This document shows, in pieces, positions 2,125 to 42,636 of a stretch of 64,000 bases of DNA. Made by a program: the position numbers and the translations under genes. The notes beneath the pieces are model-generated. The model did no database searches and was not told where the DNA came from. It saw only the letters and a list, made by a program, of their open reading frames with translations. This DNA is from Pseudomonadota bacterium (GTDB lineage: Bacteria > Pseudomonadota > Gammaproteobacteria > Burkholderiales > Burkholderiaceae_C). Location: NCBI GenBank assembly GCA_018241265.1, contig JAFEEF010000069.1, positions 33,004-97,003 of the forward strand, given 5' to 3'. Positions within the stretch are counted from its first letter, which is position 1, and each line of letters begins with the position of its first letter.

Positions 2125-2769
2125 TCAACGCACGGCGACGTCGCGGTGCAGCTCCAGCTCGAGCATCTCGAGATCCACTGCGACCTCGGGCGGCGCCGAA
2201 CGCCAGCGCGAGTACGCATAGAACGCACGCGCGATGTCGATCGCATCGCGCGTCGGCATGCGCGGTTCGTGCTCGCGCAGCCGGGTGAAGCAACGGTGCA
2301 CCCAGTCGCGCCGCGTCGCCGGCTCGGCGGGCTGCGAGGCATGCCAGCCGGACGGCGTGCGGTCGGGCTGCATGTCGTCGGGTGCGCGCGACTCCGCGAC
2401 GGCCCAATGGACGGCCGCGAGCTCTTCGGTGAGCCGCGCGATGCGGCCCGACTGGGCCGCATCGCCGAGGCATTCGGCATGCGCGGCAGCCAGTTCGCGC
2501 AGCAGCCGCGCGTACTTGCCGGTCAGGCTCTCGAAGGTCGCGGTCTCGCTCGCCGTCGTCCCGGCCGGCGACGGCCGCGCTGCGGACGGCACGCGCCCCT
2601 GGCCGGCCGCGGCCACGCGCCTCGACCAATGGATCCATGCGAGGCGCGCCAGGAAGATCGCCAGCACGCTGAGCACGACGCCGAGCCGGACGTCGTCCGG
2701 CCAGGTGAGCGCCGCGCCGATGCCGACGATCGCCGCCGCCAGCGACACGAGGACCCACTTCAATGCGAC
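2125..2769 (-). CDS. hypothetical membrane-anchored protein
   Basis: Minus-strand ORF. Likely GTG start giving VALKWVLVSLAAAIVGIGAAL (N-terminal TM helix). No recognisable family. Confidence 0.35.
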   Translation of the reverse strand, partial: VALKWVLVSLAAAIVGIGAALTWPDDVRLGVVLSVLAIFLARLAWIHWSRRVAAAGQGRVPSAARPSPAGTTASETATFESLTGKYARLLRELAAAHAECLGDAAQSGRIARLTEELAAVHWAVAESRAPDDMQPDRTPSGWHASQPAEPATRRDWVHRCFTRLREHEPRMPTRDAIDIARAFYAYSRWRSAPPEVAVDLEMLELELHRDVAVR

Positions 2770-2974
2770 CACCCCTGCACGCTCGCCATGACGACAGCCT
2801 ACCGCGCCGCCGTGCCGTCGTGCATGGCCGCACGACCGGCGGTCGTCCGGCGGCGACGAAGGTCGCATCGCCGCAGACGGGTTGCCACAAGGCTGGTTGC
2901 CATATTGCGACGCCGACACAATTCTTCGCGATGCACGGGACTAGCATTCGCGGCACCATCGTTGGGAGCGGCAC

Positions 2975-3479
2975 CATGACGAGATCGAGGCATCCGCTGA
3001 CGTTCCTGTTCGTGGCCGTGGGCGCGACGGCGTTCGTGGCGCTCACGGGAATGACGTTGCCGGATCCGGTGGCGGCGCACTTCTCGGTGACGGGCGCGGC
3101 CGACGGCTTCATGTCGCGGCACATCTACGTCGGGCTCCTGATCGCGCTGGTCGTCGGCTTGCCTGCCCTGCTCGTCGCCGCGACCTGCGCCGCAATGGGC
3201 GGCCCGCAGCGCCGCATCGACCTGCCCGACCCCGGTTACTGGCTGGCGCCCGAGCGCCGCGCCTCGACGCTCTCGAAGCTGCATGCCGGCGTGCTGCGCT
3301 TCGGTGCGCTGCTGATGGTGTTCCTGTGCTATGTGCACTGGCTCGTCGTGCGCGCCAATGCATCGGTGCCGGTGCGGCTCGCCCCGACCTGGCTGTTTGC
3401 CGGCCTGGTCGTCTTCCTGATCGTGACCGTCGTGCAGATCGCGCTGTTGCTGGGCCGCTTTCGGCACCACGGAACCTGA
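2975..3479 (+). CDS. hypothetical integral membrane protein (4 predicted TM segments)
   Basis: ATG at 2975 (MTRSRHPLTFLFVAVGATAFVAL) is preceded by a GGAG-like site. Hydrophobic segments run throughout. The upstream part of track ORF 2763..3479 looks non-coding. Confidence 0.4.
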
Positions 3480-3485
3480 CGGTGC

Positions 3486-5456: not shown

Positions 5457-5497
5457 GGCCCGCGATCCTAGTCCTAGTGCAGTGCAGCGCCGCCGCG

Positions 5498-5917
5498 CTA
5501 CGTCGCGCGCATGCGGTTGCCCTTCGGCCGATGCTCCAGTTCGCACAGGCCGAGCGCCTCCATCAGCGGCGGCACGTAGACCGCGAAGCGACCGCGCAGG
5601 CCCTTCTTCAGCCCGTACCAGCCGCCGACCGGATTGGCCGGCGAGCGCGCCCAGGCCTCGACCGTGCCGTCCTTCACCGGCTTGCCTTCGTCGGCACCGC
5701 CGAGCTCGACCCAGTCGCCCGCGGCGCGCAGCATCGCATGCAGGTCGGCGATGCAGCGGGCGTCGTAGTGCAGCACGGTCTGGCCGACGGTACAGACGAG
5801 GATCGCGCGGCCGTCCTTCTCGTCCGCATGCATCGTGTACTCGGACGTGCCGGGCGGCGTCGCGAGCCGCCACGGATCGTCCTTGCCGCGCATCGTCAAG
5901 CGCAGTGCGTCAGCCAT
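5498..5917 (-). CDS. hypothetical protein
   Basis: 139-aa ORF with coding-like composition. No family recognised. Confidence 0.35.
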   Translation of the reverse strand: MADALRLTMRGKDDPWRLATPPGTSEYTMHADEKDGRAILVCTVGQTVLHYDARCIADLHAMLRAAGDWVELGGADEGKPVKDGTVEAWARSPANPVGGWYGLKKGLRGRFAVYVPPLMEALGLCELEHRPKGNRMRAT

Positions 5918-6320
5918 GGTGCTTCAACAGGGCGATCGCGTCGACGATGAAGGCCGCCCACGCGATGGTGAACAGCACGGTGCGCGCCTTGAACAGGCCG
6001 ATGCCGCTGAGATGCACCACGGCATGGGCGAGCCGCGCATAGAAGTAGACCATCGCGCAGGCGGCCGTCGTCGGGCTCGAGAACCCGATCGCATGCGCGA
6101 TCAGCACGACGGCGGCGAACGGTGCGAAGTTCTCGACCGCGTTCAGGTGCGCGCGGTTCGCACGATTCACCCAGGCCGGCAGCGGCGCGGTCGGCGCGAC
6201 CTTGTAGGTCTCGTCGGTCAGCACGCCGCGCGACGTGACGTAGCCGATCACGACCGGGATCCACAGCGCGCCGGTGAGGATCGCGGTGAGCAGCAGGTAG
6301 CCGAGCTCGGTGGTCATCAT
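5910..6320 (-). CDS. MAPEG family membrane protein (glutathione-S-transferase-like)
   Basis: Start MMTTELGYLLLTAILTGALW at 6320. Three to four TM helices. Conserved R-x-x-x-N-x-x-E and YFYAR motifs typical of MAPEG. Confidence 0.6.
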   Translation of the reverse strand: MMTTELGYLLLTAILTGALWIPVVIGYVTSRGVLTDETYKVAPTAPLPAWVNRANRAHLNAVENFAPFAAVVLIAHAIGFSSPTTAACAMVYFYARLAHAVVHLSGIGLFKARTVLFTIAWAAFIVDAIALLKHHG

Positions 6321-18739: not shown

Positions 18740-19033
18740 ATGGGAACTCTGACGATCCGCAACCTCGAAGATCCGCTCAAGAGCCGTTTGCGGCTGCGCG
18801 CGGCTGCACGCAACAGATCCATGGAGGAGGAAGCACGCCAGATCCTCCGGGCGGCACTGCAAGAGCCCGCAGTACCCGCTCAAGACCTGGGAACGCGGAT
18901 TCGCGCGCGCTTTGCCGGACTGGGTGACGTGCAACTTGCACTTGAACCTCGCCAACCGGTGCAACAGCCGCCGGACTTCAACGACACGCCGGCGGTCAGC
19001 CCCTCGTCGGTGCGAAAGTCTCGCCGCAGATGA
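18740..19033 (+). CDS. vapB: VapB/FitA-type antitoxin (ribbon-helix-helix)
   Basis: AAGGAG ribosome-binding site 8 nt upstream of the ATG. MGTLTIRNLEDPLKSRLRLRAAARNRSMEEEARQILRAAL is a typical FitA/VapB N-terminus. Stop overlaps the next start (ATGA). Confidence 0.65.
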   Translation: MGTLTIRNLEDPLKSRLRLRAAARNRSMEEEARQILRAALQEPAVPAQDLGTRIRARFAGLGDVQLALEPRQPVQQPPDFNDTPAVSPSSVRKSRRR

Positions 19034-19461
19034 CTACGCTGCTGGACACCAACGTACTCTCGGAACTCCTGCGAGCCCAGCCGTCGCCTGCGGTGCTGGC
19101 CTGGTTCATGACGCTGCCTCACGAAAGCCTGTTCGTCAGTGCCGTAACCCAAGCCGAGATGATGCTGGGCACCCGGCTGCTACCGCCGGGCAAGCGGCGC
19201 TCGGCGTTGGAGAGCGCCCTGTCGGCAATGTTCGACGAGGACTTCGCCGGGAGGATTCTTCCTTTCGACACGAACGCCGTTCCAGCCTATGTCGACATCG
19301 TCGGTGATCGGCGTTCGATCGGCCGGCCGATCTCTCAGTTCGATGCGCAGATTGCAGCCATTGCGCGGAAGGCCGGCGCGAAGCTGGCGACGAGGAACAC
19401 TGCAGACTTCGAGGGATGCGGGGTGGCACTGATCGACCCGTGGACCGGATCGGTCGCCTGA
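19030..19461 (+). CDS. vapC: VapC-type PIN-domain toxin (FitB-like)
   Basis: MTTLLDTNVLSEL with catalytic Asp contexts (LDTNV, ...ATRNTADFEG). 143 aa. Confidence 0.75.
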   Translation: MTTLLDTNVLSELLRAQPSPAVLAWFMTLPHESLFVSAVTQAEMMLGTRLLPPGKRRSALESALSAMFDEDFAGRILPFDTNAVPAYVDIVGDRRSIGRPISQFDAQIAAIARKAGAKLATRNTADFEGCGVALIDPWTGSVA

Positions 19462-19488
19462 TGGCCCGGCCTCCCTCCGAGTAGGTCC

Positions 19489-20382
19489 ATGAGGCACGTC
19501 ACCCGATACCGCCGAAGCGACGCACCCGCAGCGGTCGAATTCTTCCGCGAGGTCAACGCACTCGACGAGACCATCGCGGCCGACACGCTTCCGGGATGGC
19601 AAGCGTTCGTCGATGAGCCGGAAAACGATGGGGGATCGGGCTTCTTCACCGTCTGGGGCGATGACGAGCGGCTGATCGCGCTGGCGTACTCCCATCTGGA
19701 GGCCGCTCCGATCCAGCACTTTCGAATCTTCGTCCACCCACTCCATCGGCGTCGGGGTCTGGCTCGCATACTGTTGGCCGCCATCGCCGAGCAACATCCG
19801 CGCCACTTGCTGCAGACGAACTGCCCGGAGCGATGGCGGGCGATGGCCGCCTTCCTGCGTGCGACAGGCTTCGAGGCGATCGACCGCGAAGACCAGCTGA
19901 GGCGGCCGTCGGGCGTGCTGCGCCACCGCACACAGCGGGTCGCGACGGCTCGGGCCGAGCCATCGGATCTTGCGGCCATCTGTCGCATCCACGAGCTGGC
20001 GTATCGAGGCAGCGTGGGGTTCGTGCCGCTCTACCCCGCGACCCTGGAGCAGCGCGTCGCCAGGGCGGAGTCCGAGCTTTGGGTGACGCGAGCGCCCTCG
20101 GATGGAGTGACCGCGTTCATCGAACTCAATCCGGGCGCCGAATGGGAAGTGAACTCGGTGGCGACGTCGCCCGCGTTCCAGCGGCAGGGCCTGGCCACCG
20201 CCCTGCTCGAACTGGCGTCCGAGCGCGCGTCAGCCGAAGGACGAGGGCTGCGGCTCTTCGTGCGCAGCACCAACGCCAACGCACTCCGCCTGTACCAGCG
20301 ACTGGGCTTCGTTCCCGTTTCGTTCAGCACGCGATACGTGCGGGGCTCGGAGCCATTCATGCCCGCGCGGACGACGCCCTGA
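19489..20382 (+). CDS. GNAT family N-acetyltransferase with two tandem GNAT domains
   Basis: Two acetyl-CoA-binding blocks (HPLHRRRGLARILL and SPAFQRQGLATALL). 27 bp after vapC. GC lower than the window mean. Confidence 0.6.
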   Translation: MRHVTRYRRSDAPAAVEFFREVNALDETIAADTLPGWQAFVDEPENDGGSGFFTVWGDDERLIALAYSHLEAAPIQHFRIFVHPLHRRRGLARILLAAIAEQHPRHLLQTNCPERWRAMAAFLRATGFEAIDREDQLRRPSGVLRHRTQRVATARAEPSDLAAICRIHELAYRGSVGFVPLYPATLEQRVARAESELWVTRAPSDGVTAFIELNPGAEWEVNSVATSPAFQRQGLATALLELASERASAEGRGLRLFVRSTNANALRLYQRLGFVPVSFSTRYVRGSEPFMPARTTP

Positions 20383-21382
20383 CCACCAACCGCGGCGCCG
20401 GCCCAAGGATCACGTCTTCCTTGACCTCGCCGCCCAGGCAGGCGAACAGCAGATCGGTCGCCTGCGTCGCGACCTGCTCGAGGCCGAGATCGACCGACGT
20501 GAGCGGCGGCACGTGCATGCGCGCGCGCACGCCGTCGTAGCGCGTCACGAGCCGCACGTCGTCGGGAATGCGGCGGCCGGTCTCGACGATCGCGCGCGCG
20601 GCGCCGACCGCGAACGCATCGACGAGCGCGCAGACGCCGTCGATGTCCGGACGCGCTGCCAGCAGTTCGGCCATCGCGCGGCGGCCGCCCTCCTCGCCGT
20701 CGGCTTCATCGATCTGCGCCATGCGCAGCGGCATCTCGCGCGCCTCGGCGAGGCGCTCGTAGACCGCGATCGTCTCGGCATACGAGTTGCGCTTCTCCGA
20801 GCCGACCAGCAACGCGATGCGCCGCGCGCCGACCTCGGCCAGATGGCCGAGCAGCAGTTCGGCGGTCTCGGTCGAGCGCAGGTCGATGCTCGGCACGCGC
20901 GGCCGCGCACCCGGCGGCTTGCCGATCGCGACCACCGGCACGCCGCGCTTGCGCAAGGTGTCTATCGTCGCATCGCGCGCGGTCGGCTCGACGACGAGCG
21001 CGCCGTCGACATCGATCGTGTCGATCGCGATCTTGCCGCCTTCCACCGGCGGCAGCAGCGCGAGCGCGAGGCCGTGCGTCAGCGCGGCGCCGGCCGCGAC
21101 CGCCGCGATCTCCATCAGGAAGCCGAGGCGCGACGGGCCGCCGGCGACCGCGAACGGCATCGACGAGACCAGCGCGATCATGTGCGCCTCGCCGGTGCGC
21201 AGCCGCTGCGCATGGCGGTTCGGCCGGTAGCCGAGGCGGCGCGCAGTGAGCTCGACCTTGGCGCGGGTGCGCGCATCGACCTGGCCGCGGCCGTTCAGCG
21301 CGTGCGACACGGTGGTCGCCGACACGCCCGCCTCGCGCGCGACGTCGAGGATGGTCACACGCGGTGTCGCACGCTGGATCAT
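20357..21382 (-). CDS. LacI family transcriptional regulator (PurR-like)
   Basis: N-terminal HTH TILDVAREAGVSATTVSHALNG. Periplasmic-binding-protein-like effector domain. Confidence 0.8.
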   Translation of the reverse strand: MIQRATPRVTILDVAREAGVSATTVSHALNGRGQVDARTRAKVELTARRLGYRPNRHAQRLRTGEAHMIALVSSMPFAVAGGPSRLGFLMEIAAVAAGAALTHGLALALLPPVEGGKIAIDTIDVDGALVVEPTARDATIDTLRKRGVPVVAIGKPPGARPRVPSIDLRSTETAELLLGHLAEVGARRIALLVGSEKRNSYAETIAVYERLAEAREMPLRMAQIDEADGEEGGRRAMAELLAARPDIDGVCALVDAFAVGAARAIVETGRRIPDDVRLVTRYDGVRARMHVPPLTSVDLGLEQVATQATDLLFACLGGEVKEDVILGPAPRLVVRASSARA

Positions 21383-21482
21383 GGATACGGGTCTCCTGGG
21401 CTCTTCATGTCGCCGCCGCGCCGTCCGTCGGGTGCTCGCAAGAAAGTCGTTGACGGCACCGGCGGCCTGTGGTCGAATCTCA

Positions 21483-21494
21483 CAAAACGTTTTG
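21483..21494. promoter_or_regulatory. perfect palindrome CAAAACGTTTTG (PurR/LacI-type operator), copy 1
   Basis: 12-bp perfect inverted repeat in the divergent intergenic region between the LacI-family gene and the NCS2 operon. Resembles the CAAACGTTTG core of PurR boxes. Confidence 0.45.
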
Positions 21495-21576
21495 GGCCGA
21501 CCGCACCGACTATAGCCGAACCGGCCGCCCCGACCGCTCGAAGCACCGCCCCGGCGGTTTTTTTCGGACTGCCGCC

Positions 21577-21588
21577 CAAAACGTTTTG
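21577..21588. promoter_or_regulatory. perfect palindrome CAAAACGTTTTG, copy 2
   Basis: Identical 12-bp palindrome 94 bp from copy 1 and about 60 bp upstream of the NCS2 start codon. Confidence 0.45.
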
Positions 21589-21648
21589 TGTGAGTCTCGC
21601 TCGTCCATGCGCCAGGTCCCGTCCGTCTCGTCCAGGAAGGAAGCCACC

Positions 21649-23001
21649 ATGTCCCGCTCGCCCTCTTCGTCCGCCCCCGTCGATGCGATGCTGCCGCCGG
21701 CGCAGCTGCTGCTGTTCGGCCTGCAGCACGTGCTGTGCATGGCCGCCGTCCCGATCACGTCGGTGTTCCTCGTCGGCAAGGCGCTCGCGCTGCCGAACGA
21801 GCTGATGGTCAACCTGATCAGCGCGACCTTCCTGGTCTGCGGCCTGGGCTCGCTGCTGCAGGCCTTCGGGCCGTGGAAGATCGGCGCGCGGCTGCCGTTC
21901 GTGATGGTGCCGGGCGGCGCGCCGGTCGTGATGTTCGTGACGATCGCGCAGCAGCGCGACCTGAAGACGGCGAGCGGCGCGGTGATCCTGACCGCGCTGT
22001 TCTACTTCCTCTTGCTGCCGGTGTTCCGGCGCTGCCTGAAGTACTTCCCGCGCATCGTCATCGGCAGCCTGCTGCTGCTCGTGTCGGTCAACCTCGTGAA
22101 GGTCTACGGCGCGATCATCGTCGGCAAGCCCGGCACGCCCGACTACGCCGCGCCGATGAACATCTACCTCGCGCTCGCGACGGTCGGCTTCACGGTGCTG
22201 TTCGCGCGCGCCTTCAAGGGCACGCTCGGCCAGCTGTCGGTGCTGCTCGGCCTCGCGGCCGGCGCGATCGTCGCGTATGCGCTCGGCCAGATGAGTCTGG
22301 CGGGCGTGGTCGCCGGGCCGGTCGTCAGCGCGCCCGCGCTGCTGCCGTTCGGCATGCCGACCTTCGACGTCGTCGCCGCGGTGCCGCTCCTGATCTTCAG
22401 CGTGATCTCGATGGTCGAGGCGACCGGCCAGACCGTCGCGGTCGCCGAGATCGTCGGCAAGGAGATCGACATCCGCGAGGAGGTGCCGAAGACGATCCGC
22501 GGCGACGCGGTGATGTCGCTCGTCGGCGGCCTGCTCGGCACGTCGATGATCATCACCAGCGGCGAGAACATCGGCATCGTGCGCGCGACCGGCGTGCGCT
22601 CGCGCTACGTCACCGCGACCGCGGCGCTGATCCTGATCGTGATCGCCCTCTTCGCGCCGCTCGGCCGGCTCGCCGCGGCGATCCCGGCGCCGGTCGTCGG
22701 CGGCACCGCGATGATCGTCTTCGCGGTGATCGGCACGATGGGCATCGACATGCTGCGCAACGTCGACCTGCGCGAGCGCGGCAACATGTTCATCCTGGCG
22801 TCCGCGCTGACGATGGGTCTCCTGCCGATCGTCGTGCCCGGCCTCTACAGCCACTTCTCGCCGAACGCGCAGATCGTGCTCGGCAACGGCCTCGCGATGG
22901 GCTCGATCACCGCGATCGTGCTGAACATCGTGTTCCATCACCTGCGCGTGCGCGACGGCAACGGCGTCGCGACCGTCGCCACGCAGGAGGCCGCGTCGTG
23001 A
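21649..23001 (+). CDS. nucleobase:cation symporter-2 (NCS2) family permease (xanthine/uracil/purine permease)
   Basis: AGGAAGG ribosome-binding site before ATG 21649. 12-14 TM helices. NCS2 signature region. The track ORF 21469..23001 has a non-coding-looking N-terminal extension. Confidence 0.8.
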   Translation: MSRSPSSSAPVDAMLPPAQLLLFGLQHVLCMAAVPITSVFLVGKALALPNELMVNLISATFLVCGLGSLLQAFGPWKIGARLPFVMVPGGAPVVMFVTIAQQRDLKTASGAVILTALFYFLLLPVFRRCLKYFPRIVIGSLLLLVSVNLVKVYGAIIVGKPGTPDYAAPMNIYLALATVGFTVLFARAFKGTLGQLSVLLGLAAGAIVAYALGQMSLAGVVAGPVVSAPALLPFGMPTFDVVAAVPLLIFSVISMVEATGQTVAVAEIVGKEIDIREEVPKTIRGDAVMSLVGGLLGTSMIITSGENIGIVRATGVRSRYVTATAALILIVIALFAPLGRLAAAIPAPVVGGTAMIVFAVIGTMGIDMLRNVDLRERGNMFILASALTMGLLPIVVPGLYSHFSPNAQIVLGNGLAMGSITAIVLNIVFHHLRVRDGNGVATVATQEAAS

Positions 23002-24404
23002 GCCGCACCGCAGCGATCCCCGAAAGCCTGCAGGCCCGCGAGCTGCTGCTCGCGCCCGAGCGGGTGCTGCTGCGCGACGGCCCGGCACGCGACCATGCGG
23101 TGCATGTCGTCGACGGCCGTTTCGCCGCCGTCGGCCCGCGCGACGAGCTGACGCGGCGGCTGCCGAAGCTGCCGGTCACCGAACTGCCTGGGCGCTTGCT
23201 GATGCCCGGCTTCATCGATGCGCACCATCACCTGACGCAATCGTTCGGCAAGTCGCTCGCCTACGGCGAGCCGTCGGAGATCTTCCGGCGCGTCTGGGTG
23301 CCGCTGGAGAGCAGCCTGGGCGAGGACTTCGTGCACGTCGGCGCGAAGCTCGCGGCCCTCGAGAGCCTGCGCGGCGGCTTCACCACCATATGCGATGCCG
23401 GCACGCGGGCCAGCGGCGCGATCGACGCGATCGCGAGTGCGGTCGAATCGGCCGGGCTGCGCTGCGTGCTCGGCCTGACCTGCAACGACGTGACCGCGAG
23501 CGACACCGAGCGCGATCGCATCGTGACGGCGGCCGAGCAGTTCCTCGCGCGGCCGCGCGGCGATGGGCTCGTGCATCCTTCCCTGGCGATCTCGGTGCCC
23601 GAGGCGGGCAGCGACGCGATGCTGCAGAAGGTGTCGGCGCTGTGCGGCGAAGCCGGCGCGATCTTCCAGACGCACGTCAACGAGCACCTCGCGTCGGTCG
23701 AACGATCGGTGGTCGCGCGCGGCCTCCGGCCGCTCGAGCTGCTGAGCTCGCTCGGTGCGCTCGGGCCGCAGGTGCTGATCGCCCATGCGACGCTGGTCAC
23801 GCCATCGGAGCTCGCTATCCTGCGCGATACCGATACCGCCGTCGCCTACAACCCGGTGGCGAGCATGTGGAAGGGCAATGCGGTGGCGCCGGCGCTCGCG
23901 ATGGCGACGCTGGGCATCCGCTTCGGGCTCGGCACCGACTCGACGCGCAGCGACGCCTTCCGGCTCGTCGATGCGGCCGAGGCGGCACAGAAGCTCGCGT
24001 TCGCGCTGCCCATCGGCGACGCCTCGTGCGGCGCCGGCTGGACCTGGCTCGACCATGCGACGACCGACGGCGCCGCGGCCTGCGGCCTCGGCGGCATCAC
24101 CGGCGAGATCGCGCCGGGGCTGGCGGCCGACTTCCTGCTCGTCGACATCGACGTGCCGGAGATGTGCACCACCGTCGACCTGACCTGGGACCTCGTGCGC
24201 ATCGCCGGCCGCGATCAGATCGAGGCGGTGTTCGTCGCCGGCCGCATGCGGCTCTGGCAAGGCTGGCCGGTCGACTGGGACGCGCGCGCGCTGATGCGCG
24301 AGGTGGCCGCGGTCGCCGGCCGCGCGATCGCCGAAGCGCCGATCCAGCGCCTGCACCTGCCGGCCGCCGAGCACCGTCGCCGCGCGATGAGCGTCCGCCA
24401 CTGA
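22998..24404 (+). CDS. amidohydrolase superfamily protein (nucleobase deaminase / chlorohydrolase-like)
   Basis: GTG start overlapping the permease stop (GTGA). Metal-binding FIDAHHHL and HVNEH motifs. Track shows it fused to the upstream region as an 889-aa ORF; only the 3' 1.4 kb is this gene. Confidence 0.75.
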   Translation: MSRTAAIPESLQARELLLAPERVLLRDGPARDHAVHVVDGRFAAVGPRDELTRRLPKLPVTELPGRLLMPGFIDAHHHLTQSFGKSLAYGEPSEIFRRVWVPLESSLGEDFVHVGAKLAALESLRGGFTTICDAGTRASGAIDAIASAVESAGLRCVLGLTCNDVTASDTERDRIVTAAEQFLARPRGDGLVHPSLAISVPEAGSDAMLQKVSALCGEAGAIFQTHVNEHLASVERSVVARGLRPLELLSSLGALGPQVLIAHATLVTPSELAILRDTDTAVAYNPVASMWKGNAVAPALAMATLGIRFGLGTDSTRSDAFRLVDAAEAAQKLAFALPIGDASCGAGWTWLDHATTDGAAACGLGGITGEIAPGLAADFLLVDIDVPEMCTTVDLTWDLVRIAGRDQIEAVFVAGRMRLWQGWPVDWDARALMREVAAVAGRAIAEAPIQRLHLPAAEHRRRAMSVRH

Positions 24405-24433
24405 ACTTCCATTCTTCTTTCGACGAGACTTCC

Positions 24434-25147
24434 GTGACCGCCGACCATTGGCTCCTGATCTCCGCCGCGGTGCTGGCCGCGGCCTTCGTGCAAGGCTCGA
24501 CCGGCGTCGGCTTCGCACTCATCGCCGGCCCGGTGATGGGCCTCATCGCACCGCAGTTGCTGCCGGTCAGCCTGCTCGTGCTGATGCTGCCGCTGAACCT
24601 CTACGTGCTGTGGCGCGAACGCGCCGCGATCGACCGCCACGGCGCGAGCTGGGTCACCTTCGGCCGCGTCGCCGGCACCGCCGGCGGGATCTGGGTGCTG
24701 GCGATGCTGAGCGCGTCGCAGCTCGCGCTCTTCGTCGGCCTGGCGACCGTCGCCGCGGCGCTCGTGACGATCGCGATGCCGAGCTTCACGCCGGGGCGCA
24801 AGGTGTATGCCGCGGCCGGTGTGATCACCGGCATCACCGAGACCGCGACCGGCATCGGCGGGCCGCCGCTGGCGCTGGTCTACCAGCATCAGCCGGTGGC
24901 GGTGATGCGGGCGACGATCGCGCTGTGCTTTCTGGTCGGCGAGCTGGTGTCGCTCGCGGTATTGGTCGCGACCGACCGCGTGCCCGAAGGGCAATGGCAA
25001 GCGTTGGCTGCGCTGTTGCCGGCGCTGGGCGTCGGCGCATGGCTGAGCCGGCATGGCGCGCACCGCGTCAACGAGCGGTTCCTCAGGCGCTTCGTGCTCG
25101 GGTTCGCGATCGTGTCGGGGATGGCGCTGTTGGTGAAGGCGGCCTGA
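24434..25147 (+). CDS. TauE/SafE (DUF81) family sulfite/anion exporter
   Basis: GTG start. About 7 TM. Paired GxG-rich repeats (IAGPVMG, GIGGPP). Confidence 0.6.
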   Translation: MTADHWLLISAAVLAAAFVQGSTGVGFALIAGPVMGLIAPQLLPVSLLVLMLPLNLYVLWRERAAIDRHGASWVTFGRVAGTAGGIWVLAMLSASQLALFVGLATVAAALVTIAMPSFTPGRKVYAAAGVITGITETATGIGGPPLALVYQHQPVAVMRATIALCFLVGELVSLAVLVATDRVPEGQWQALAALLPALGVGAWLSRHGAHRVNERFLRRFVLGFAIVSGMALLVKAA

Positions 25148-25223
25148 CACCGTCCTCCGCAACGAACGCCACGGGTAGACTCCGCCCGGACCGGCCGTTC
25201 GTCGATGCCGGCGCGGAGCCGGC

Positions 25224-26207
25224 ATGCCACCCAAGGTCTTTATCGGTTCGTCCACCAAGGGCCTGCCGATCGCCGAAGCGATACAGAAGGCGCTGTCGCA
25301 CACCGCAGAGGCGGTGATCTGGAACCAGGGCGTGTTCCGCACGACCAACGTGCCGATCGAGAACCTGCTGCGCGCGGTCGGGGAGTACGACTTCGGCGTG
25401 TTCGTCTTCTTGCCCGAGGACGAGTTGCGTGCTCGCGAAGAAGCGGTCCTGTCGGTGCGCGACAACGTGATCTTCGAGGTCGGCCTGTTCATCGGCACGC
25501 TCGGCCGAGAGCGCACCTTCTTCCTCGCGCCGAAGAACCAGGACGTCAAGGCTTACCTGCCGAGCGATCTTGCCGGCATCACGCCGGCGTTCTACGACCC
25601 CGCCGCATCGAGCCGTGAAGCCGCCGTTGGTGCGCCCCTCTACGAGGTCAGGGAGGCAATTCGCGCTCTCGGCGCGCGCAGCGGACGCCACCACATTCTC
25701 TATGACGGCCGCGGGAGCCGCTTGCGCCAGTTTCACTTTGACGCGCAGATTCGCTCAGTCTCGGGTGGCAAGGAGACGGTCACGCTGCTTAGCAACGGAG
25801 AGTTGCGGGCCACGCCCGACGGCACCTTGTGCATCGATCGCCGCAGCCGCGACGCCCGCTACGAGGTAACGCTGTGCCCCGCGGGACCCGGAAAGCCGTC
25901 ACTGGGACGCCGGCCTGATCGGGTCCTGCTGCTGACGCTGGAGGCCAGGACCGATGGCGAGCCGCACGATCTGAGTTTCGTGCTGAAACGGGCCGACGGC
26001 AATCGCGAACGCGTCATGACGCTACACAACCAAGTCACGAGTACCGCCTGGACTCCGCTGCAGTTGTACCTTCGTGGGCCGCAGGATGTCGACCTTCTGC
26101 TGCGCATCGACGACAAGAAACCGGGTCCGGCACCGTCGTCGGTCTTCCTCCGCAATTTGCTGCTGGTTGACGTCGATGAGCGGGAAGTCGGGCCAATGCA
26201 ATCCTAG
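25224..26207 (+). CDS. TIR-like domain protein (CAP12/PycTIR-type, COG4271-like N-terminal domain) with unassigned C-terminal domain
   Basis: N-terminus KVFIGSSTKGLPIAEAIQKAL...VIWNQGVF...EYDFGVFVFLPED...VRDNVIFEVGLFIGTLGRERTFFL. Lower GC and atypical codons (ttt, cta, agt, ata) compared with the flanks. C-terminal roughly 170 aa is beta-rich and unassigned. Confidence 0.55.
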   Translation: MPPKVFIGSSTKGLPIAEAIQKALSHTAEAVIWNQGVFRTTNVPIENLLRAVGEYDFGVFVFLPEDELRAREEAVLSVRDNVIFEVGLFIGTLGRERTFFLAPKNQDVKAYLPSDLAGITPAFYDPAASSREAAVGAPLYEVREAIRALGARSGRHHILYDGRGSRLRQFHFDAQIRSVSGGKETVTLLSNGELRATPDGTLCIDRRSRDARYEVTLCPAGPGKPSLGRRPDRVLLLTLEARTDGEPHDLSFVLKRADGNRERVMTLHNQVTSTAWTPLQLYLRGPQDVDLLLRIDDKKPGPAPSSVFLRNLLLVDVDEREVGPMQS

Positions 26208-27517
26208 CCCAGCGCCCGCCCCGCCGTCTCCCGCGTGCACATCACGGCGATCAGCGACACCGCGCCGCAGGCGATCATGTACCACGCCGGCGCGAGGTTC
26301 GAGCCGGTCTGCTGGATCAGCCAGGTCGCGTTGAACTGCGCGAACCCGCCGAAGATCGAAACGCCGAGCGCGTAGACCAGCGACAGGCCGGTGGCGCGGA
26401 TCGCCTTCGGGAACAGCTCGGTGATCAGCACCACGGCCGACACCGAGCTGAAGGCGAGCGGGATGACCAGCATGAACACGGCCGTGAAGAGGCCGGTCGC
26501 GGAGCGCGTCGAGTCCATCAGCATGAAGGCCGGCAGCACCAGCACGCAGAGCAGCACGAACGCGATCACGATGACGGGCTTGCGGCCGTAGCGGTCGGCG
26601 GTCTTGCCGGCGATCGGCGCCAGCAGCATCTGCATGCCGGCGGCGATCCACGCGGCCCACAGGCCGAGCGAGAACGGCATGTGCAGCACGACCTTGGCGT
26701 AGTTCGTCAGGTAGTGCAGCACGAGGTAGTTCGCGGTCGTGCCGCCGACGATCAGGCCGAAGCCGATCAGGAGTTCGCGCTTGTAGTCGCGCAGCACGAC
26801 CGACAGCGCGCTCGGCGGCTTCGGGCCGCGTGCGCCGGGCGCCGCGACGTCGCCGGTCTCCTCCAGATGACGGCGGATATAGGCACCGACCGGAATGACC
26901 AGCAGCCCGATCGCGAACGGTATGCGCCAGCCCCAGCTTTCGAGCGCCTCGGTCGACATCGTCGCGGTGAGCGCCAGGCCGAGCGCCGAGCCGGCGAGCG
27001 TGCTGAGTGCCTGGCTGAAGAGCTGCCAGCTGCAGTAGTAGCCGCGCGTGCGGTCGGTCGCGTATTCGAGCAGCATCGACGTCGACGCGCCGAGTTCGCC
27101 ACCCACCGCGAAGCCCTGGATCAGCCGGCCGACGATGATGATCACCGGTGCCGCGATGCCGATCTGCGCCTGCGTCGGCGCCAGCACGAACACCGCCGAG
27201 CCGAGCGCCATCAGCCACAGGGTCAAGGTCATCGCGGGCTTGCGGCCAGCGCGGTCGGCGTAGTTGCCGATCACGATCCCGCCGAGCGGCCGCATCACGA
27301 AGCCGACGCCGAACACCGCGAGCGACAGCAGCAGCCGGGCGATCTCGCTCTCGCCCGGGAAGAACTGCTTGCCGATCATCGCGGCGAAGAAGGTGTAGAT
27401 CGAGAAGTCGAAGAACTCGAGACCGTTGCCTATCGTGATCGCCGCGATCTTCTTGGCCGAAGGCGTGACTTTCGGCGAAGGTGCGACGCGGTCCAGCGTG
27501 CCGGCGTAAGTGTTCAT
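26204..27517 (-). CDS. MFS transporter, metabolite:H+ symporter (MHS) family (KgtP/ProP-like)
   Basis: 12 TM. N-terminal GNGLEFFDFSIYTFFAAMIGKQFFP signature of MHS permeases. Confidence 0.8.
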   Translation of the reverse strand: MNTYAGTLDRVAPSPKVTPSAKKIAAITIGNGLEFFDFSIYTFFAAMIGKQFFPGESEIARLLLSLAVFGVGFVMRPLGGIVIGNYADRAGRKPAMTLTLWLMALGSAVFVLAPTQAQIGIAAPVIIIVGRLIQGFAVGGELGASTSMLLEYATDRTRGYYCSWQLFSQALSTLAGSALGLALTATMSTEALESWGWRIPFAIGLLVIPVGAYIRRHLEETGDVAAPGARGPKPPSALSVVLRDYKRELLIGFGLIVGGTTANYLVLHYLTNYAKVVLHMPFSLGLWAAWIAAGMQMLLAPIAGKTADRYGRKPVIVIAFVLLCVLVLPAFMLMDSTRSATGLFTAVFMLVIPLAFSSVSAVVLITELFPKAIRATGLSLVYALGVSIFGGFAQFNATWLIQQTGSNLAPAWYMIACGAVSLIAVMCTRETAGRALG

Positions 27518-37396: not shown

Positions 37397-39334
37397 TCAG
37401 CCGCGCGCGAGTTGCGTAGCCTTCAACGCACTCATCAACGCCAGCATCGTCGACAGCGCGTTCGCATCTCCGCCCTGGGCGCCGAGCTGGATCTGCGGCA
37501 CGAGCGGCACCTTGGCCGTCTCGAAGGCTTCGGCGATGCGCAGCATCACGGTCTGCGTGAGCTGCTTGTCGGCGCCCTCGCCCTGCAGCGCGTCCGACTT
37601 CGCCTTGATCGCAGCGCCTTCGGCCTCGCCGACGCTCTTGATCGCGGCCGCGCGTCCGAGGCCTTCGTTCTCCTGGCGGAAGCGCTCCGCCTGCGCCAGC
37701 GCTTCGATCTCCTGGCGCCGCTTCTCGGCCATCTTCACCGCCGCCGCGCCCTGGTTGTCGCGGATCGTGATGTCGACCAGCGACGCGGTCAGCTCGGCCT
37801 GCTTCTCGGCGCGCTTCTCGGCCTCCTTCAGCTCGCGCTGCTTGTCGGCCGCGATCTGCTTCTGGGCGTACGTCTCGACCTGCTCGCGCGCGATCTGCCG
37901 GTCGCGCAGCTGCGCCATGATGTCCTCGATGCGGTGGTCGCCGGCCTGCGGCTTCGGCGTCCCGATCAGCACCTCCTGGAACTCGAGCGAATAGGCGAGG
38001 AAGCGCTCGCGCATGTCGATCGACGCGTTGGCCTGCAATTCGCTCCGCGACTGGATCAGCTCGATGAAGGTGCGCGTCTGGCTGACGTTCTTGAAGTACG
38101 ACGACACCATCGGGTCGAGCGTCTGCTCGACCAGCTGCTTCACGTTGCCGAAGCGCTGCACCACCATCGGCGCCTTGCGGTAGTCGATGTGCACGACGAC
38201 CGACAGCGGCAGCTGCGGCTCGAACGCGTCCTTCGTGATCAGCGTGATCTCGCGCAGGTTCGAATCGAAGTTCGAGCCGCTCGCGTTCGATTGCCACATC
38301 AGCACGAAGTTGGTCGTCGGCACCAGCTCGATCTTGCCGGCGTAGGTGTTGAAGGCGTACTTGCCCGGCATCAGCGGATCGCGCCAGACGCCGCGGCAGC
38401 CGCTCGCGACGAGCTCGCCGTGGCTGTAGTCGACGCCCGACGTGTCCTCGCCCTTCGCGCCGGTGTACGACACGACGACGCCGACGAAGCCGACCGGGAT
38501 CACCGTCTTCGGGATCAGCTCGACGGTCGCGAACAGCCGGTTGATGTAGTAGGTGCCTTCGACCAGCACGCGCTCCTGGCGCCCGCGCCGGCCGCCGGCG
38601 GCGAGGAAGGCCTCGGGCTCCTGGAACGAGTGATGCCCATCGCCGACGTCGGGCGCGAGCAGGTCGTCGCGTTGCAGCGCGGGCCCGTCCTGCACCGTGA
38701 CGACCGCCAGCAGATCCGAGTCGTGGTCGGCACCGGCACCGCGCACGATGATCGGCGTGAAGGCGTGCCGCTCGTCGAGCAGCTCGCGCATCTTCGCGTA
38801 GTAGCCGTGCTCCGTCGCATCGAGCGCGAGCGAATAGGTCGCCTCTTCGGTCATCACGACGAACAGCGCCGGATTGACGATGTGCGTGCCTTCACGAAGC
38901 ACCTTGCGCTGCGGGCCCTTCTGTCCGCCGCCGCGCAGGAAGGCGCGCACGTCGCGGAAGTCGTCGACCTGCGCATTGGCCGCCAAGGTCTGGCCCGAAG
39001 CGAGATCGAGCCCGTCGCGCGCGAACACGTAGCCGATCTTGCCTTGCGTCACCGCGACCATCGACCGGATGTGCACGCGGTACTGGAACGGCGCGAACGC
39101 GTGGAAGCCGCCGCGCAGCAGCTCGGGCTGGAAGCCCGCTTCGCCGTCGAGCGCGAGCAGGCCGCTGCGCACCGAGCCGCGGCCGCTCCACAGCCGTTCG
39201 ACGACGCCGATGCGATCGTTCGGGATGTAGCGCACCATGCCCGAGATGCGCATGAACAGTGCGATGGCCAATAGCGTAGCCGGGCCGATGACGAGCCCTA
39301 TGACCCATGCCGGGCCGAAACCGAGGCTGAACAT
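37397..39334 (-). CDS. SPFH/band-7 (flotillin-like, YqiK family) membrane protein
   Basis: N-terminal TM anchor (MFSLGFGPAWVIGLVIGPATLLAIALF). Long SPFH core. C-terminal coiled-coil rich in EA/KR repeats (...QIAREQVETYAQKQIAADKQRELKEAEKRAEKQAEL...). Confidence 0.75.
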   Translation of the reverse strand: MFSLGFGPAWVIGLVIGPATLLAIALFMRISGMVRYIPNDRIGVVERLWSGRGSVRSGLLALDGEAGFQPELLRGGFHAFAPFQYRVHIRSMVAVTQGKIGYVFARDGLDLASGQTLAANAQVDDFRDVRAFLRGGGQKGPQRKVLREGTHIVNPALFVVMTEEATYSLALDATEHGYYAKMRELLDERHAFTPIIVRGAGADHDSDLLAVVTVQDGPALQRDDLLAPDVGDGHHSFQEPEAFLAAGGRRGRQERVLVEGTYYINRLFATVELIPKTVIPVGFVGVVVSYTGAKGEDTSGVDYSHGELVASGCRGVWRDPLMPGKYAFNTYAGKIELVPTTNFVLMWQSNASGSNFDSNLREITLITKDAFEPQLPLSVVVHIDYRKAPMVVQRFGNVKQLVEQTLDPMVSSYFKNVSQTRTFIELIQSRSELQANASIDMRERFLAYSLEFQEVLIGTPKPQAGDHRIEDIMAQLRDRQIAREQVETYAQKQIAADKQRELKEAEKRAEKQAELTASLVDITIRDNQGAAAVKMAEKRRQEIEALAQAERFRQENEGLGRAAAIKSVGEAEGAAIKAKSDALQGEGADKQLTQTVMLRIAEAFETAKVPLVPQIQLGAQGGDANALSTMLALMSALKATQLARG

Positions 39335-39771
39335 GATTTCCTCTTGGAAGAGTTTGGGAAGAGTTTGGAGCAACGCCCGTCCGGCGTCGCCCATGGGCGC
39401 GATGCGGTCGCGACCGACCGGCGCGTACGTTCGATGCGCGCTCGATGACACCTCCCCGCGTTCAACGATCGGGGCGGCGCAAGCGGGGAAGATTCAGGGG
39501 CGCCGTCGCGGCAGCCGCAGACGGATGGTCCAACCCGCCGGCAGCGGCAGGTCCAACGGACGTAAGGCGTGGATGCCGGCGACGCGCCCTGGGCGGGCGC
39601 GACCGGCGCGGTGCGCGCCGCAGTCGAATGCGTTCACGATGTGCTCTGGTGTCTGCGGCCGTAGCCCGACGCGGCGCATCGTCCTCCGTTGCCGGCGCTT
39701 TGCAAGCGGATGCTACAAAGGCCCTGACGGGCAAGCATGTATGCCGTGCGCAGCCACGCGCCGGGCCCTGT

Positions 39772-40339: not shown

Positions 40340-41617
40340 ATGCGCGCCATCTTCATCAGCTATCGCCGCGAAGACGCCGAAGGCCATGCCGGACGGCTCT
40401 TCGAAGACCTCGTGCAACGCTTCGGCAGCGCGTCCGTGTTCATGGACGTCGCCGACATCGAGCCGGGCCGCGACTTCCGGCGCGTCATCGAGGAGCAGGT
40501 GGCGTCGTGCGGCGTGCTGCTCGCGGTGATCGGCAAGAGCTGGCTCGACGTGGCCGATGCACAGGGCAAGCGGCGTCTCGACGACCCGTACGACTTCGTC
40601 GTGCTCGAGACCGCTTCGGCCCTGAAGCGCGACATCCCGGTGATACCGGTGCTGGTGCACGGCGCGACGATGCCGCGCGCCGAGCAGTTGCCCGATGCGC
40701 TGAAGGATCTGGCCTACCGCAACAGCGTCGGGCTGACGCACGTACGCTGGAGCTCCGACGTGCAGTTGCTGATCCGTGCGCTGCTGCCGTATGTCGATGC
40801 GGCGAGCGGCGACGTGCGGCCGGTTGCCGCACCCGTGCCGGCACCGGCGCCGGTGCCGGCAGCTGCAACTGCGCCCGCACCCTCGCCCGCCTATCCGCCC
40901 ACGGAGCAGCGCAGCAGGCTTCCGCTCGCCACGCTCGGCAGCGTGGTCGCCATCGGTGCGGTCGCCGGCATCGGCTACCTGTGGTCGGATCACGCACGGA
41001 AGCCGATCGTCGCGCAGTCCGACTTCACGGCGGCGAGCCAGCCGGTCGCGTCGGTCGCTCCGGCGCCGATGCCAGCGCCGGCACCCGCGCCGGCGCCCGC
41101 GCGGACCTCGGAGGCGAGCGGGCCGATCGGCGACGCCGATGTCGCGAAGCCGGCACCTGCCGCACCGCCACCCCACAAGCGTCCGCCTGCCCCGGCACCC
41201 CGCCCGATCGAGACGACCGTGGCCACCGCCACGCCGGCCCCGGCGCCTGCGCCGGCCCTGGTCCCGGCTCCACTGCCGCCGGCCGCGCCGCCGCCGACCG
41301 GCGCGCCGGTCCCGGATGCATCGACGGATGCCGAGATGGCCATACCGAGCCGCGCCGACCCGGCGCTCGCCATCTACGGCGATCGCGTCAAGGTGAGCTT
41401 CGCGACGCGTACCATCGTCATCACGCCATCGACCAACTACGTCAACGTGACCGGCGGAGAGATCATTCGCTTCGTCGTCGGCAACAAGTCGATGGCATGG
41501 AACTTCAACGGCCGCTCGGGCAGCTTCGACCTGGCGCGCGCCGCGCCGGCGCTGATCGACCACAAGGTCACGGCGTACATCGCGCCCAATCCGTACTACC
41601 CGCGCTCCGGCGGCTGA
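40340..41617 (+). CDS. TIR domain-containing single-pass membrane protein (TIR - Pro/Ala-rich linker - TM - C-terminal domain)
   Basis: MRAIFISYRREDAEGHAGRLFEDL...VFMDVADIEPGRDFRRVIEEQVASCGVLLAVIGKSWL is a canonical bacterial TIR (TIR_2-like). TM LATLGSVVAIGAVAGIGYLW. PAPAPA low-complexity linkers. C-terminal roughly 95-aa beta-rich domain. Confidence 0.7.
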   Translation: MRAIFISYRREDAEGHAGRLFEDLVQRFGSASVFMDVADIEPGRDFRRVIEEQVASCGVLLAVIGKSWLDVADAQGKRRLDDPYDFVVLETASALKRDIPVIPVLVHGATMPRAEQLPDALKDLAYRNSVGLTHVRWSSDVQLLIRALLPYVDAASGDVRPVAAPVPAPAPVPAAATAPAPSPAYPPTEQRSRLPLATLGSVVAIGAVAGIGYLWSDHARKPIVAQSDFTAASQPVASVAPAPMPAPAPAPAPARTSEASGPIGDADVAKPAPAAPPPHKRPPAPAPRPIETTVATATPAPAPAPALVPAPLPPAAPPPTGAPVPDASTDAEMAIPSRADPALAIYGDRVKVSFATRTIVITPSTNYVNVTGGEIIRFVVGNKSMAWNFNGRSGSFDLARAAPALIDHKVTAYIAPNPYYPRSGG

Positions 41618-41700: not shown

Positions 41701-42636
41701 CTACCAGTCGTCGCTGCCGCCGCCCCCGCCGCCGCTGTCGAACGATCCGCCGGCGTCGCCGCCCCAGTCGTCGCCGTTGCCGAAGTCGACCGGGCGCTCT
41801 TCGAGCGCGCGCGCATCGGCGTCACGGCTGTTGTCGATGAACGAGCCCGGATCGAACGGGCCGCCGCCGGCACCGCTGTCATGCGGGATGTAGCCTTGCT
41901 GCGAGTCATGGCCGCGCTCGAGCATCTTCTCGGCGAGCATGCCGGCCGCGACGCCGCCTGCAGCGGCCAGGCCGACGCCGAGCATGCCGGAGCCGCCGCT
42001 CGACGGCACCGGTCCGGGGCCGTACCCTGGCCCGTATCCCGGGCCATACCCCGGCCCATACCCCGCACCGCCGGTCGGGCCGTAGCCCGGCGCATAGGTC
42101 GTCGCCGCGTTGCCGTACCCCGGCGCCGGCACCGGACCGGACGCGCGGCTGCGGCTCAGCATGCGCCACAGGAAGTAGCCGATCGCGAGCAGGCCGACCA
42201 GCCAGATCCAGCCCGGAATCCCGGAGCGCTGGACGACGGGCTGCGGCGCCACCGGTGCCGGCACGACATCGGTGGACAGGGACGGCGCGGCGGGACGCGT
42301 GTTCGCCGACGCGCGACGCGCCTGCTCGCGGTCCAGCGTCTGCTGGAAGCTGCGAAACTTGTCGGGCTGCGTGAACGACAGCGACGGATCGATCTGGCGC
42401 GCCCGGTCGGCCTGCTGCGCCGCCTCGGCGAAACGGTCGTTGTGCGCCAGGATCTCGGCGTAGACGTAGTGCGCCTTGGCGCTGTCGGGCTTGGCCGCGA
42501 CCACCTCGCGCATCATCGACTCGGCCTGTGCGTAGTCGCCTTTCTGCACCGCCGCCTCGACGTTGGCCACCGTCGGCAGCGCGAACGCCACCGAGGCCAG
42601 TACCGCGAGCCCGAAGCCGATCAACCAGCGTTTCAT
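41701..42636 (-). CDS. TPR-repeat membrane protein with Gly/Tyr-rich C-terminal region
   Basis: Signal peptide. TPR-like helices (AKAHYVYAEILAHNDRFAEAAQQADRARQIDP). TM WIWLVGLLAIGYFLW. GYGPGYGPGYGPGYGPG repeats. Confidence 0.55.
   Translation of the reverse strand: MKRWLIGFGLAVLASVAFALPTVANVEAAVQKGDYAQAESMMREVVAAKPDSAKAHYVYAEILAHNDRFAEAAQQADRARQIDPSLSFTQPDKFRSFQQTLDREQARRASANTRPAAPSLSTDVVPAPVAPQPVVQRSGIPGWIWLVGLLAIGYFLWRMLSRSRASGPVPAPGYGNAATTYAPGYGPTGGAGYGPGYGPGYGPGYGPGPVPSSGGSGMLGVGLAAAGGVAAGMLAEKMLERGHDSQQGYIPHDSGAGGGPFDPGSFIDNSRDADARALEERPVDFGNGDDWGGDAGGSFDSGGGGGGSDDW

Follow-up and report, generated by a model that had tools for sequence, protein, structure and literature searches.

A TIR protein with a recurrent C-terminal jelly-roll module as a candidate single-gene sensor-effector in soil bacteria

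The TIR-X gene and its TIR domain

Bacterial TIR NADases are a central theme connecting bacterial, plant and animal innate immunity, and the systems that employ them are usually told apart by how infection is sensed. Here, we describe a gene, denoted TIR-X, in a 64,000-nucleotide stretch (hereafter the window) of contig JAFEEF010000069.1 from a Pseudomonadota bacterium, whose product carries a TIR domain at the N-terminus and a beta-jelly-roll domain, denoted module X, at the C-terminus. A preliminary description of the locus had reported an open reading frame (ORF) with TIR-like signature motifs near its N-terminus, and all of the quoted motifs were located in the 327-residue protein encoded at 25224..26207 (+): KVFIGSS at residues 4-10, FVFLPED at residues 60-66 and RDNVIFEVGLFIG at residues 79-91. 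The protein has no signal peptide and no transmembrane (TM) segment, its maximum hydropathy over 19 residues being 1.34. An identical protein (P0001) is present on five contigs and was recovered from several samples. The full-length AlphaFold2 (AF2) model, calculated with the family alignment as input, is confident and contains two domains, with a predicted local distance difference test score (pLDDT) of 84.5. The features of the gene are as follows.

25224..26207, + strand: TIR-X, complete gene with ATG start, 327 residues, comprising an N-terminal TIR domain, a linker helix and a C-terminal jelly-roll (ORF listing)
25233..25598, + strand: TIR domain of Cap12/PycTIR type, residues 4-125
25476..25478, + strand: codon of E85, counterpart of the catalytic E84 in SfSTING (7un8 alignment; roles from PMC9402430)
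25566..25568, + strand: codon of D115, counterpart of SfSTING D110 (7un8 alignment; roles from PMC9402430)
25614..25670, + strand: linker helix joining both domains, residues 131-149 (AF2 secondary structure H131-149)
25686..26174, + strand: module X, predicted C-terminal beta-jelly-roll with CBM4/CBM22-like fold, residues ~155-317, 11 strands

Pfam PF10137 (CAP12-PCTIR_TIR) matches residues 4-125 of TIR-X at E=1.2e-29 and 103.1 bits, against a cutoff of 24.7, and the match spans positions 1-118 of the 119 in the profile; judged by its sequence, TIR-X is a member of this domain family. The PADLOC models of the CBASS TIR effector and PycTIR matched residues 3-152 (E=3e-45 to 2e-34). With both sets of scores far above chance, the Cap12/PycTIR-type TIR fold proposed earlier is well supported. 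The solved structures nearest by sequence are those of Cap12 TIR-STING (9lmq, E=6e-21; 7un8, E=3e-14) and PycTIR (8jsj, E=2e-15), all of which align with TIR-X through the TIR part only.

The NADase pocket of SfSTING consists of F6, S10, W33, F37, L47, R78, N80, the catalytic E84 and D110, the last of which completes the active site of the adjacent TIR only upon assembly (PMC9402430). In the alignment with 7un8, these nine residues correspond to F6, S10, W33, F38, L48, R79, N81, E85 and D115 of TIR-X, respectively, and D115 takes the place of the trans-acting D110. All nine are invariant in the alignment of 33 family members. The preliminary description had considered that homologues might lack the catalytic acidic residues, which is not the case for E85 and D115. 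The N-terminal domain is a TIR of Cap12/PycTIR type, and its catalytic pocket appears to be intact. With every residue of the NAD+ pocket kept, the catalytic Glu and the trans Asp among them, TIR-X probably shares the assembly-dependent NADase mechanism of Cap12.

Module X and its interchangeable N-terminal heads

The C-terminal 178-184 residues of TIR-X had no Pfam match. When residues 150-327 were modeled alone, AF2 produced an all-beta structure of 11 strands with a pLDDT of 87.7 and a predicted template modeling score of 0.84, so the beta-rich character noted in the preliminary description was borne out, and the region is a real conserved domain outside the domain libraries. Based on this model, module X is a CBM4/CBM22-like jelly-roll, similar to galactose-binding domains. 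The domain had been called unassigned, which holds for the sequence libraries but no longer for the fold. Membership of module X in a Pfam family was rejected by sequence, as the 29 members of the module alignment gave only scattered sub-threshold matches to assorted beta-sandwiches, including one to CBM_4_9 at E=0.031. Among more distant relatives, one protein matched CBM_4_9 at 7.7e-5, and a further sporadic match among the relatives was at 0.003 (18.3 bits against a cutoff of 25.9). Although the beta-jelly-roll is common to module X and the carbohydrate-binding modules (CBMs) of CBM4, CBM22 and CBM_4_9, sequence identity to CBM4/CBM22 is only 5-19%, and the module of the window has no PF02018 match. 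Furthermore, CBMs are secreted and attached to glycoside hydrolases, whereas module X is cytoplasmic and attached to death effectors, and its conserved core is rich in Arg, whereas glycan clefts typically have an aromatic platform. A Foldseek search against viral structures led from module X to CBM-like domains of phage tail fibers (E~1e-7); this match was read as generic fold similarity, and a specific kinship with tail fibers was rejected.

A word-indexed search for full-length relatives of TIR-X yielded about 35 proteins of ~320 residues with 33-50% identity and 95-97% query coverage, derived from soil metagenomes and metagenome-assembled genomes (MAGs), including Pyrinomonadaceae and Bradyrhizobium. 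The fusion of both domains is conserved across these members, and their alignment contains conserved motifs in both halves. We then searched a profile of module X alone exhaustively against 1.84 billion cluster representatives, and 392 proteins were matched at E<=1e-3, 269 of them at E<=1e-10. P0176, a protein of 2,564 residues with 30 short matching stretches, was left out because it is probably a repetitive, unrelated beta-sandwich protein. In every case inspected, module X lies at or near the C-terminus, with a median tail of one residue.

The N-terminal heads, by contrast with this constant module, are interchangeable. Among 141 new representatives, 14 carry a PF10137 TIR and 10 a TIR_2 domain (e.g. 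P0129, P0146, P0147 and P0175). An SpbK-like TIR is found in P0232 (E=1e-27) and P0156, a ThsB1-like TIR in P0186 (E=1e-74, TIR part only), a DUF4062 NADase in P0239 (above the Pfam threshold) and a DUF4231/SLATT_4-like head with two TM helices in P0262 (just below the Pfam threshold). The commonest group, 82 of the 187 proteins classified by a simple hydropathy rule, has TM heads, in which either a single TM helix precedes a coiled coil or the number of TM helices is two to five; we denote these proteins TM-X. A basic cluster C-terminal of the TM helix, read with the positive-inside rule, places module X in the cytoplasm in the TM-X forms. The TIR fusion is thus a minority architecture in a larger superfamily whose commonest heads are TM. 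No model for module X exists in PADLOC 2.0, Pfam (2025) or NCBIfam (2026), and our literature search found no paper on an architecture of TIR plus module X. Considering both, TIR-X would be a TIR NADase encoded by a single gene, whose sensor module is new and defines a sizeable uncatalogued superfamily.

In P0186, module X replaces the Y4lF domain that usually follows a ThsB1-like TIR, and its contig of 2.6 kb is too short to reveal any Thoeris effector. The TIR of P0186 belongs to a very large family of ~320-residue TIR proteins with a C-terminal PF27176 (Y4lF) domain, which is matched by the PADLOC ThsB1 model PDLC00420. In Stenotrophomonas and relatives (loci L052-L054, 6001..6972), a TIR-Y4lF gene lies on an integrase-bearing island and adjoins a gene of 153 codons, and a metallo-beta-lactamase gene resembling the anti-Pycsar Apyc1 is nearby.

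To describe the core of module X, we compared 164 complete modules irrespective of their N-terminal partner. The conserved residues are R206 (100%), G211 and R233 (98% each), W276 (97%), G192 (93%), R294 (91%), N208 (90%), R212 (86%), H248 and S305 (85% each) and D296 (84%). With a pLDDT of about 88 and with R206, R233 and W276 conserved in at least 97% of modules whatever the N-terminus, module X is a folded and constrained domain. Pairwise identity within the TIR-X family averages 41% for module X and 58% for the TIR domain, the latter being higher in 528 of 528 pairs; the faster evolution of module X fits the expectation for a sensor.

The same core allows another explanation, in which TIR-X is an orphan second-messenger effector and module X a small-molecule receptor analogous to STING, SAVED and cNMP-binding domains. 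An anionic signal of nucleotide, ADP-ribose or sugar-phosphate type would come from an enzyme elsewhere in the genome or in the phage, and its binding would lead to TIR filament formation and NAD+ depletion. The three to four invariant arginines, together with Trp and His, are typical of phosphate-, base- or sugar-binding pockets, and the fold of module X is that of ligand-cleft CBMs. In CBASS and Pycsar effectors, TIR and TM heads are paired with the same sensor type, and the presence of either a TIR or a TM head on a C-terminal module that stays constant mirrors the pairs TIR-STING/TM-STING and PycTIR/PycTM; the PADLOC and NCBIfam effector models have only the TIR part in common with TIR-X. 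The sub-threshold DUF4231/SLATT_4-like head of P0262 also points in this direction, SLATT_4 being, according to Pfam, an effector domain associating with SMODS and SLOG. However, no signal-generating enzyme is linked to module-X genes in about 19 independent contexts, nor does the 64-kb window contain one. The messenger effectors known to date nearly always share an operon with their cyclase. The faster divergence of module X relative to TIR is also less expected for a receptor whose small-molecule ligand is fixed. We regard an orphan effector as possible but far from probable. A wider version, which we hold to be rather doubtful, is that module X represents a class of receptor domain for intracellular immunity that was not recognized before and that arose from a carbohydrate-binding jelly-roll, in which the Arg/Trp/His site would bind a small anionic ligand and switch on the interchangeable heads, whether TIR NADase or membrane-disrupting. 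The candidate ligands would be a nucleotide-, ADP-ribose- or sugar-phosphate-type messenger, or a nucleotide-sugar or glycan made by the phage. Such a receptor would be a counterpart of STING and SAVED whose signal source is genetically unlinked, for example the phage itself or a shared cellular pathway.

The module of the window is itself off the consensus. Within 25839..26111, it carries the substitutions N208S, G211A, R251S and W263R, the first two at positions conserved in at least 90% of modules, and its identity to other members is 31%, compared with the typical 41%, although its TIR domain is typical at 59%. Such a pattern might be explained by decay or drift of this copy, whose sensor module would have lost consensus residues, the gene being carried on although its original function is no longer selected for. 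However, the ORF is intact and of full length, all TIR catalytic residues are retained together with the strictest module residues (R206, R212, R233, W276, R294 and D296), the module scores 168 bits against the family profile with a confident model, and the identical sequence was recovered from several samples. A relic therefore seems very unlikely.

Stand-alone status, known systems and a proposed mechanism

The preliminary description had portrayed TIR-X as a stand-alone gene. On long contigs, six diverged homologues have entirely different neighbors, including peptidase M24 with adenosine deaminase, an AAA ATPase with AdoHcyase, and ETF genes; an IS110 transposase adjoins the homologue in L007, and the L009/Bradyrhizobium contexts contain a stretch rich in toxin-antitoxin genes. 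For the TM-X proteins, we took 33 loci from metagenomes and clustered all flanking ORFs, and recurrence was seen within near-identical contigs only. The immediate neighbors are mutually unrelated (M14 peptidase, CHAT-TPR, VTT, desaturase, PAP2, GntR and GT2). A neighbor of ~1,008 residues at two loci was rejected as a partner, as it is an M14 peptidase orthologue with 85% identity between the two. At L021, a gene at 2653..6015 (+) directly downstream of the TM-X gene encodes a TPR-CHAT protein of 1,121 residues with the protease architecture of conflict systems, and this pairing did not recur at other loci. In 7 TIR-X and 26 TM-X loci, independent lineages had no neighbor in common, and none was conserved across the 7 TIR-X and about 12 independent TM-X contexts, so module-X proteins behave as single-gene units.

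The absence of signaling partners was also retained from the earlier account. A PADLOC sweep of the 55 candidate ORFs of the window found no CD-NTase, Pycsar cyclase or ThsA, no CD-NTase was present among the neighbors of TIR-X or in the six homologue contexts, and no ThsA, SLOG or Macro effector lies in its vicinity. The conserved neighboring cyclase that had been suggested as a check among homologues was not found, and neither were conserved operon partners of any metabolic kind; residence in metabolic operons had been named as an outcome contrary to the proposed interpretation.

A further explanation is a physiological role outside immunity. A cytoplasmic nucleotide- or NAD-processing enzyme might be controlled by, or directed to, an endogenous glycan, nucleotide-sugar or envelope precursor by means of its lectin-like domain, for example in stress- or envelope-linked NAD+ turnover, in which case the relatives with TM heads would carry the same sensor anchored to the membrane. 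The housekeeping or metabolic neighbors, the absence of mobile-element hallmarks and of relatives in plasmids, phages and viral contigs, and the CBM-like fold, which hints at a carbohydrate ligand as does the CBM_4_9 match of one relative, are in line with this explanation. In contrast, the lack of conserved metabolic operon partners, the heads known from immune and cell-suicide systems (Cap12/PycTIR, SpbK-like and ThsB-like TIRs, DUF4062) and the patchy, single-copy distribution across phyla at 33-50% identity do not fit it well, and TIR-X lies at a synteny break and is missing from otherwise syntenic loci of Caldimonas and Variovorax. On balance, we consider a non-immune role unlikely.

Compared with CBASS, TIR-X resembles Cap12 (TIR-STING, e.g. 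SfSTING; 7un8 and 9lmq) in having an N-terminal PF10137 TIR followed by an input domain of ~170 residues, with a total length of 327 residues against 312-331 in Cap12. However, the NCBIfam equivalogs NF050172 and NF050171 score only 108.5 and 92.2 bits against a cutoff of 450 and match over profile positions 1-126 only, the C-terminal cyclic-dinucleotide-binding STING domain is not present, and no CD-NTase is adjacent or elsewhere in the window. PycTIR (8jsj) is of the same TIR lineage (E=1.8e-15 to 2e-34) and, by analogy, would follow the same NADase effector logic, but its domain order is reversed, with an N-terminal sensor and the TIR at residues ~155-306, and TIR-X has neither a cyclic-nucleotide-binding domain nor a pyrimidine cyclase partner. 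Thoeris differs in that no ThsB model is among the PADLOC matches of TIR-X and no signal-responsive effector is nearby. Membership in CBASS, Pycsar or Thoeris was thus ruled out by domain content and missing partner genes, and TIR-X stands outside CBASS Cap12, Pycsar and Thoeris because their defining features were looked for and are not present.

In its genetic organization, TIR-X is closer to SpbK of ICEBs1 and to Swarozyc, in which one gene encodes a TIR or TIR-like NADase with an auxiliary recognition domain and no conserved partner. Relatives of module X carry the same heads, namely an SpbK-like TIR (P0232, P0156) and DUF4062 (P0239), and trigger-templated oligomerization is what we propose, by analogy, for TIR-X. 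SpbK is a TIR NADase activated by direct binding of the phage portal YonE (PMC11984713), and Swarozyc/DUF4062 is a single-protein TIR-like NADase activated by the oligomeric phage portal (bioRxiv 10.64898/2026.05.01.722283). On the other hand, their TIR lineage and recognition domains differ from those of TIR-X, SpbK uses an N-terminal region for recognition, and both systems occur on mobile elements or in defense islands and are experimentally validated, whereas TIR-X is known from sequence alone. By these comparisons, TIR-X resembles TIR-STING and PycTIR most at its effector end and SpbK and Swarozyc most in its genetic organization.

A eukaryotic parallel is provided by the fungal HET-lectin-fold proteins (Podospora BH, het-B), which combine an N-terminal TIR-related death domain with a C-terminal lectin-type beta-sandwich. 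In BH, the recognition specificity is set by the lectin-fold domain at the C-terminus, a domain that is the more variable part. The differences are that BH has a HET rather than a TIR domain, an FB-lectin/actinoporin-like fold and an extra middle domain, and that its partner, a PII-like protein, is encoded next door.

The explanation we favor, with roughly even confidence, is that TIR-X is a self-contained product of one gene that combines sensor and effector: upon sensing an infection cue, the jelly-roll would cause the TIR domains to assemble and NAD+ to be depleted. TIR-X would act as a lone cytoplasmic protein whose N-terminal TIR is a putative NAD+ hydrolase, with the active site completed in trans as in TIR-STING by D115 reaching into the adjoining TIR; a site completed in this way would leave TIR-X inactive until several copies pack together. 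Module X would be the input domain, and the infection-associated cue to which it binds would most likely be a phage component in oligomeric form or some other macromolecular pattern. Binding would cluster TIR-X and bring the TIR domains together, NAD+ would be destroyed, and the infected cell would arrest or die (abortive infection). The observed basis consists of the domain identities, the intact pocket, the conserved fusion, the swapping of heads while module X stays constant, and the lack of partner genes; from these we infer NADase activity, oligomerization-driven activation, a sensor role of module X and a function in defense. The preliminary description had already suggested a single-gene sensor-plus-NADase module, and at the level of sequence the idea is strengthened, as module X is also joined to five or more further heads that are known or likely to be immune effectors.

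Several points weigh against this sensor-effector. PADLOC has no model for module X or for TM-X proteins, no association with a defense island or mobile element was found, the neighbors of homologues are mostly housekeeping genes, and module X is absent from the plasmid, phage and IMG/VR collections. The hints of such an association are limited to the IS110 transposase in L007, the toxin-antitoxin genes in L009 and a FitA/PIN pair 5.7 kb from TIR-X in the window. Judged by sequence, the N208S and G211A changes and the divergence of the window copy may mean that its input function is altered or weakened. Finally, a pocket for a small ligand would account equally well for the strictly conserved Arg/Trp/His core, and it would favor a messenger receptor over protein sensing.

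Module X appears as a cytoplasmic lectin-like jelly-roll that would serve as a portable input module; Pfam, NCBIfam and PADLOC lack it, and it is joined to at least six kinds of cell-killing head in about 400 protein clusters from soil bacteria, all of them single genes. If the proposed sensor-effector is validated, a new family of one-gene defense systems would be added. TIR-X would also offer a compact two-domain model of 327 residues for the ligand-driven assembly of TIR active sites, and would pose the concrete question of what a CBM-type fold recognizes in the cytoplasm during infection. The recognized cue could turn out to be either a molecular pattern of phages or a messenger, in both cases a new one, and annotation pipelines would gain a model for a domain now labeled only "nucleotide-binding protein".

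Composition, neighbors and other features of the window

The preliminary description had taken TIR-X to be horizontally acquired and had noted a clearly lower GC content, rare codons and unrelated neighbors. The GC content is indeed 64.5%, compared with 70.7% for the window. At third codon positions (GC3), however, it is 0.81, only about 1.5 standard deviations below the window mean of 0.88 +/- 0.05, so the gene is no extreme outlier; the flanking genes are at 0.92-0.98. Codons ending in A or T make up 19% of TIR-X against 11% of the background, and the rare codons mentioned earlier are all present in small numbers of one to three each (TTT 3, CTA 1, AGT 2, ATA 1, AAA 2). Upstream, the TauE gene ends at 25147 and leaves a gap of 76 nt, not the 77 given before, while the convergent MFS gene at 26204..27517 (-) overlaps TIR-X by 4 nt, as described.

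The block of LacI, xanthine/uracil permease, amidohydrolase and TauE genes at 20357..25147 of the window is conserved, with protein identities of 59-79%, in a Caldimonas sp., in Variovorax soli and in a MAG of Proteobacteria (L013, L014 and L016), from which the bacterium of the window belongs in or close to the Burkholderiales. In those three genomes, synteny stops exactly at the TauE stop codon, and no TIR-X, MFS or M20 gene follows downstream. A clean insertion of TIR-X was rejected, as comparison with related genomes reveals a synteny break only. The locus has no integrase, transposon or tRNA hallmarks, and module X had no relatives in plasmid and phage collections by tblastn or in IMG/VR by a pattern scan; a mobile or viral origin was rejected on the latter results. 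Taken together, the modest GC3 dip and the synteny break after TauE are suggestive of acquisition but inconclusive, and the earlier claim of horizontal transfer is weakly supported.

Apart from TIR-X, the window encodes a toxin-antitoxin pair of FitA-like ribbon-helix-helix/PIN type together with a GNAT acetyltransferase at ~18740..20382 (+), the names being those annotated on the identical contig L001. This stretch, 5-6 kb upstream of TIR-X, has the lowest GC3 in the window (0.75-0.81) and may be another acquired patch.

Two smaller features lie at the ends of the TIR-X gene.

25205..25225, + strand: perfect 8-bp hairpin ATGCCGGC-GCGGA-GCCGGCAT with a 5-nt loop (sequence and fold)
26204..26207, no strand: overlap of 4 nt, in which the TIR-X stop codon meets that of the MFS transporter gene running convergently (ORF coordinates, MFS Pfam match)

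The hairpin contains the Shine-Dalgarno sequence GGAG (25215-25218), which stands 5 nt ahead of the TIR-X ATG, as well as the first two bases of this ATG. Such a structure could hold down the translation of TIR-X, a potentially toxic protein, with uncertain significance, since the folding energy of the region is ordinary given its composition (z=-0.5).

Another TIR protein, which is unrelated to TIR-X, has 425 residues and no module X and is encoded at 40340..41617 (+). Its N-terminus is a TIR_2-type sequence, MRAIFISYRREDAEG, with a local hidden Markov model match at E=2.9e-11 and PADLOC matches to SAVED_TIR (1e-6) and ThsB (4e-6). Behind the TIR come a Pro/Ala-rich linker and one TM helix (~193-215), then a long stretch that is again rich in Pro and Ala, and lastly a small beta domain at the C-terminus. 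The gene is flanked by a flotillin-like ORF of 684 residues at 37397..39451 (-) and a TPR/Gly-rich ORF of 311 residues at 41701..42636 (-), both described by translation only. In the PADLOC sweep of the window, one of the 55 ORFs matched the candidate defense family PDC-S33 (E=1e-16), and others matched models of a TAP-like protein (C3a206, 3.8e-9) and of a subtilase (5.9e-9).

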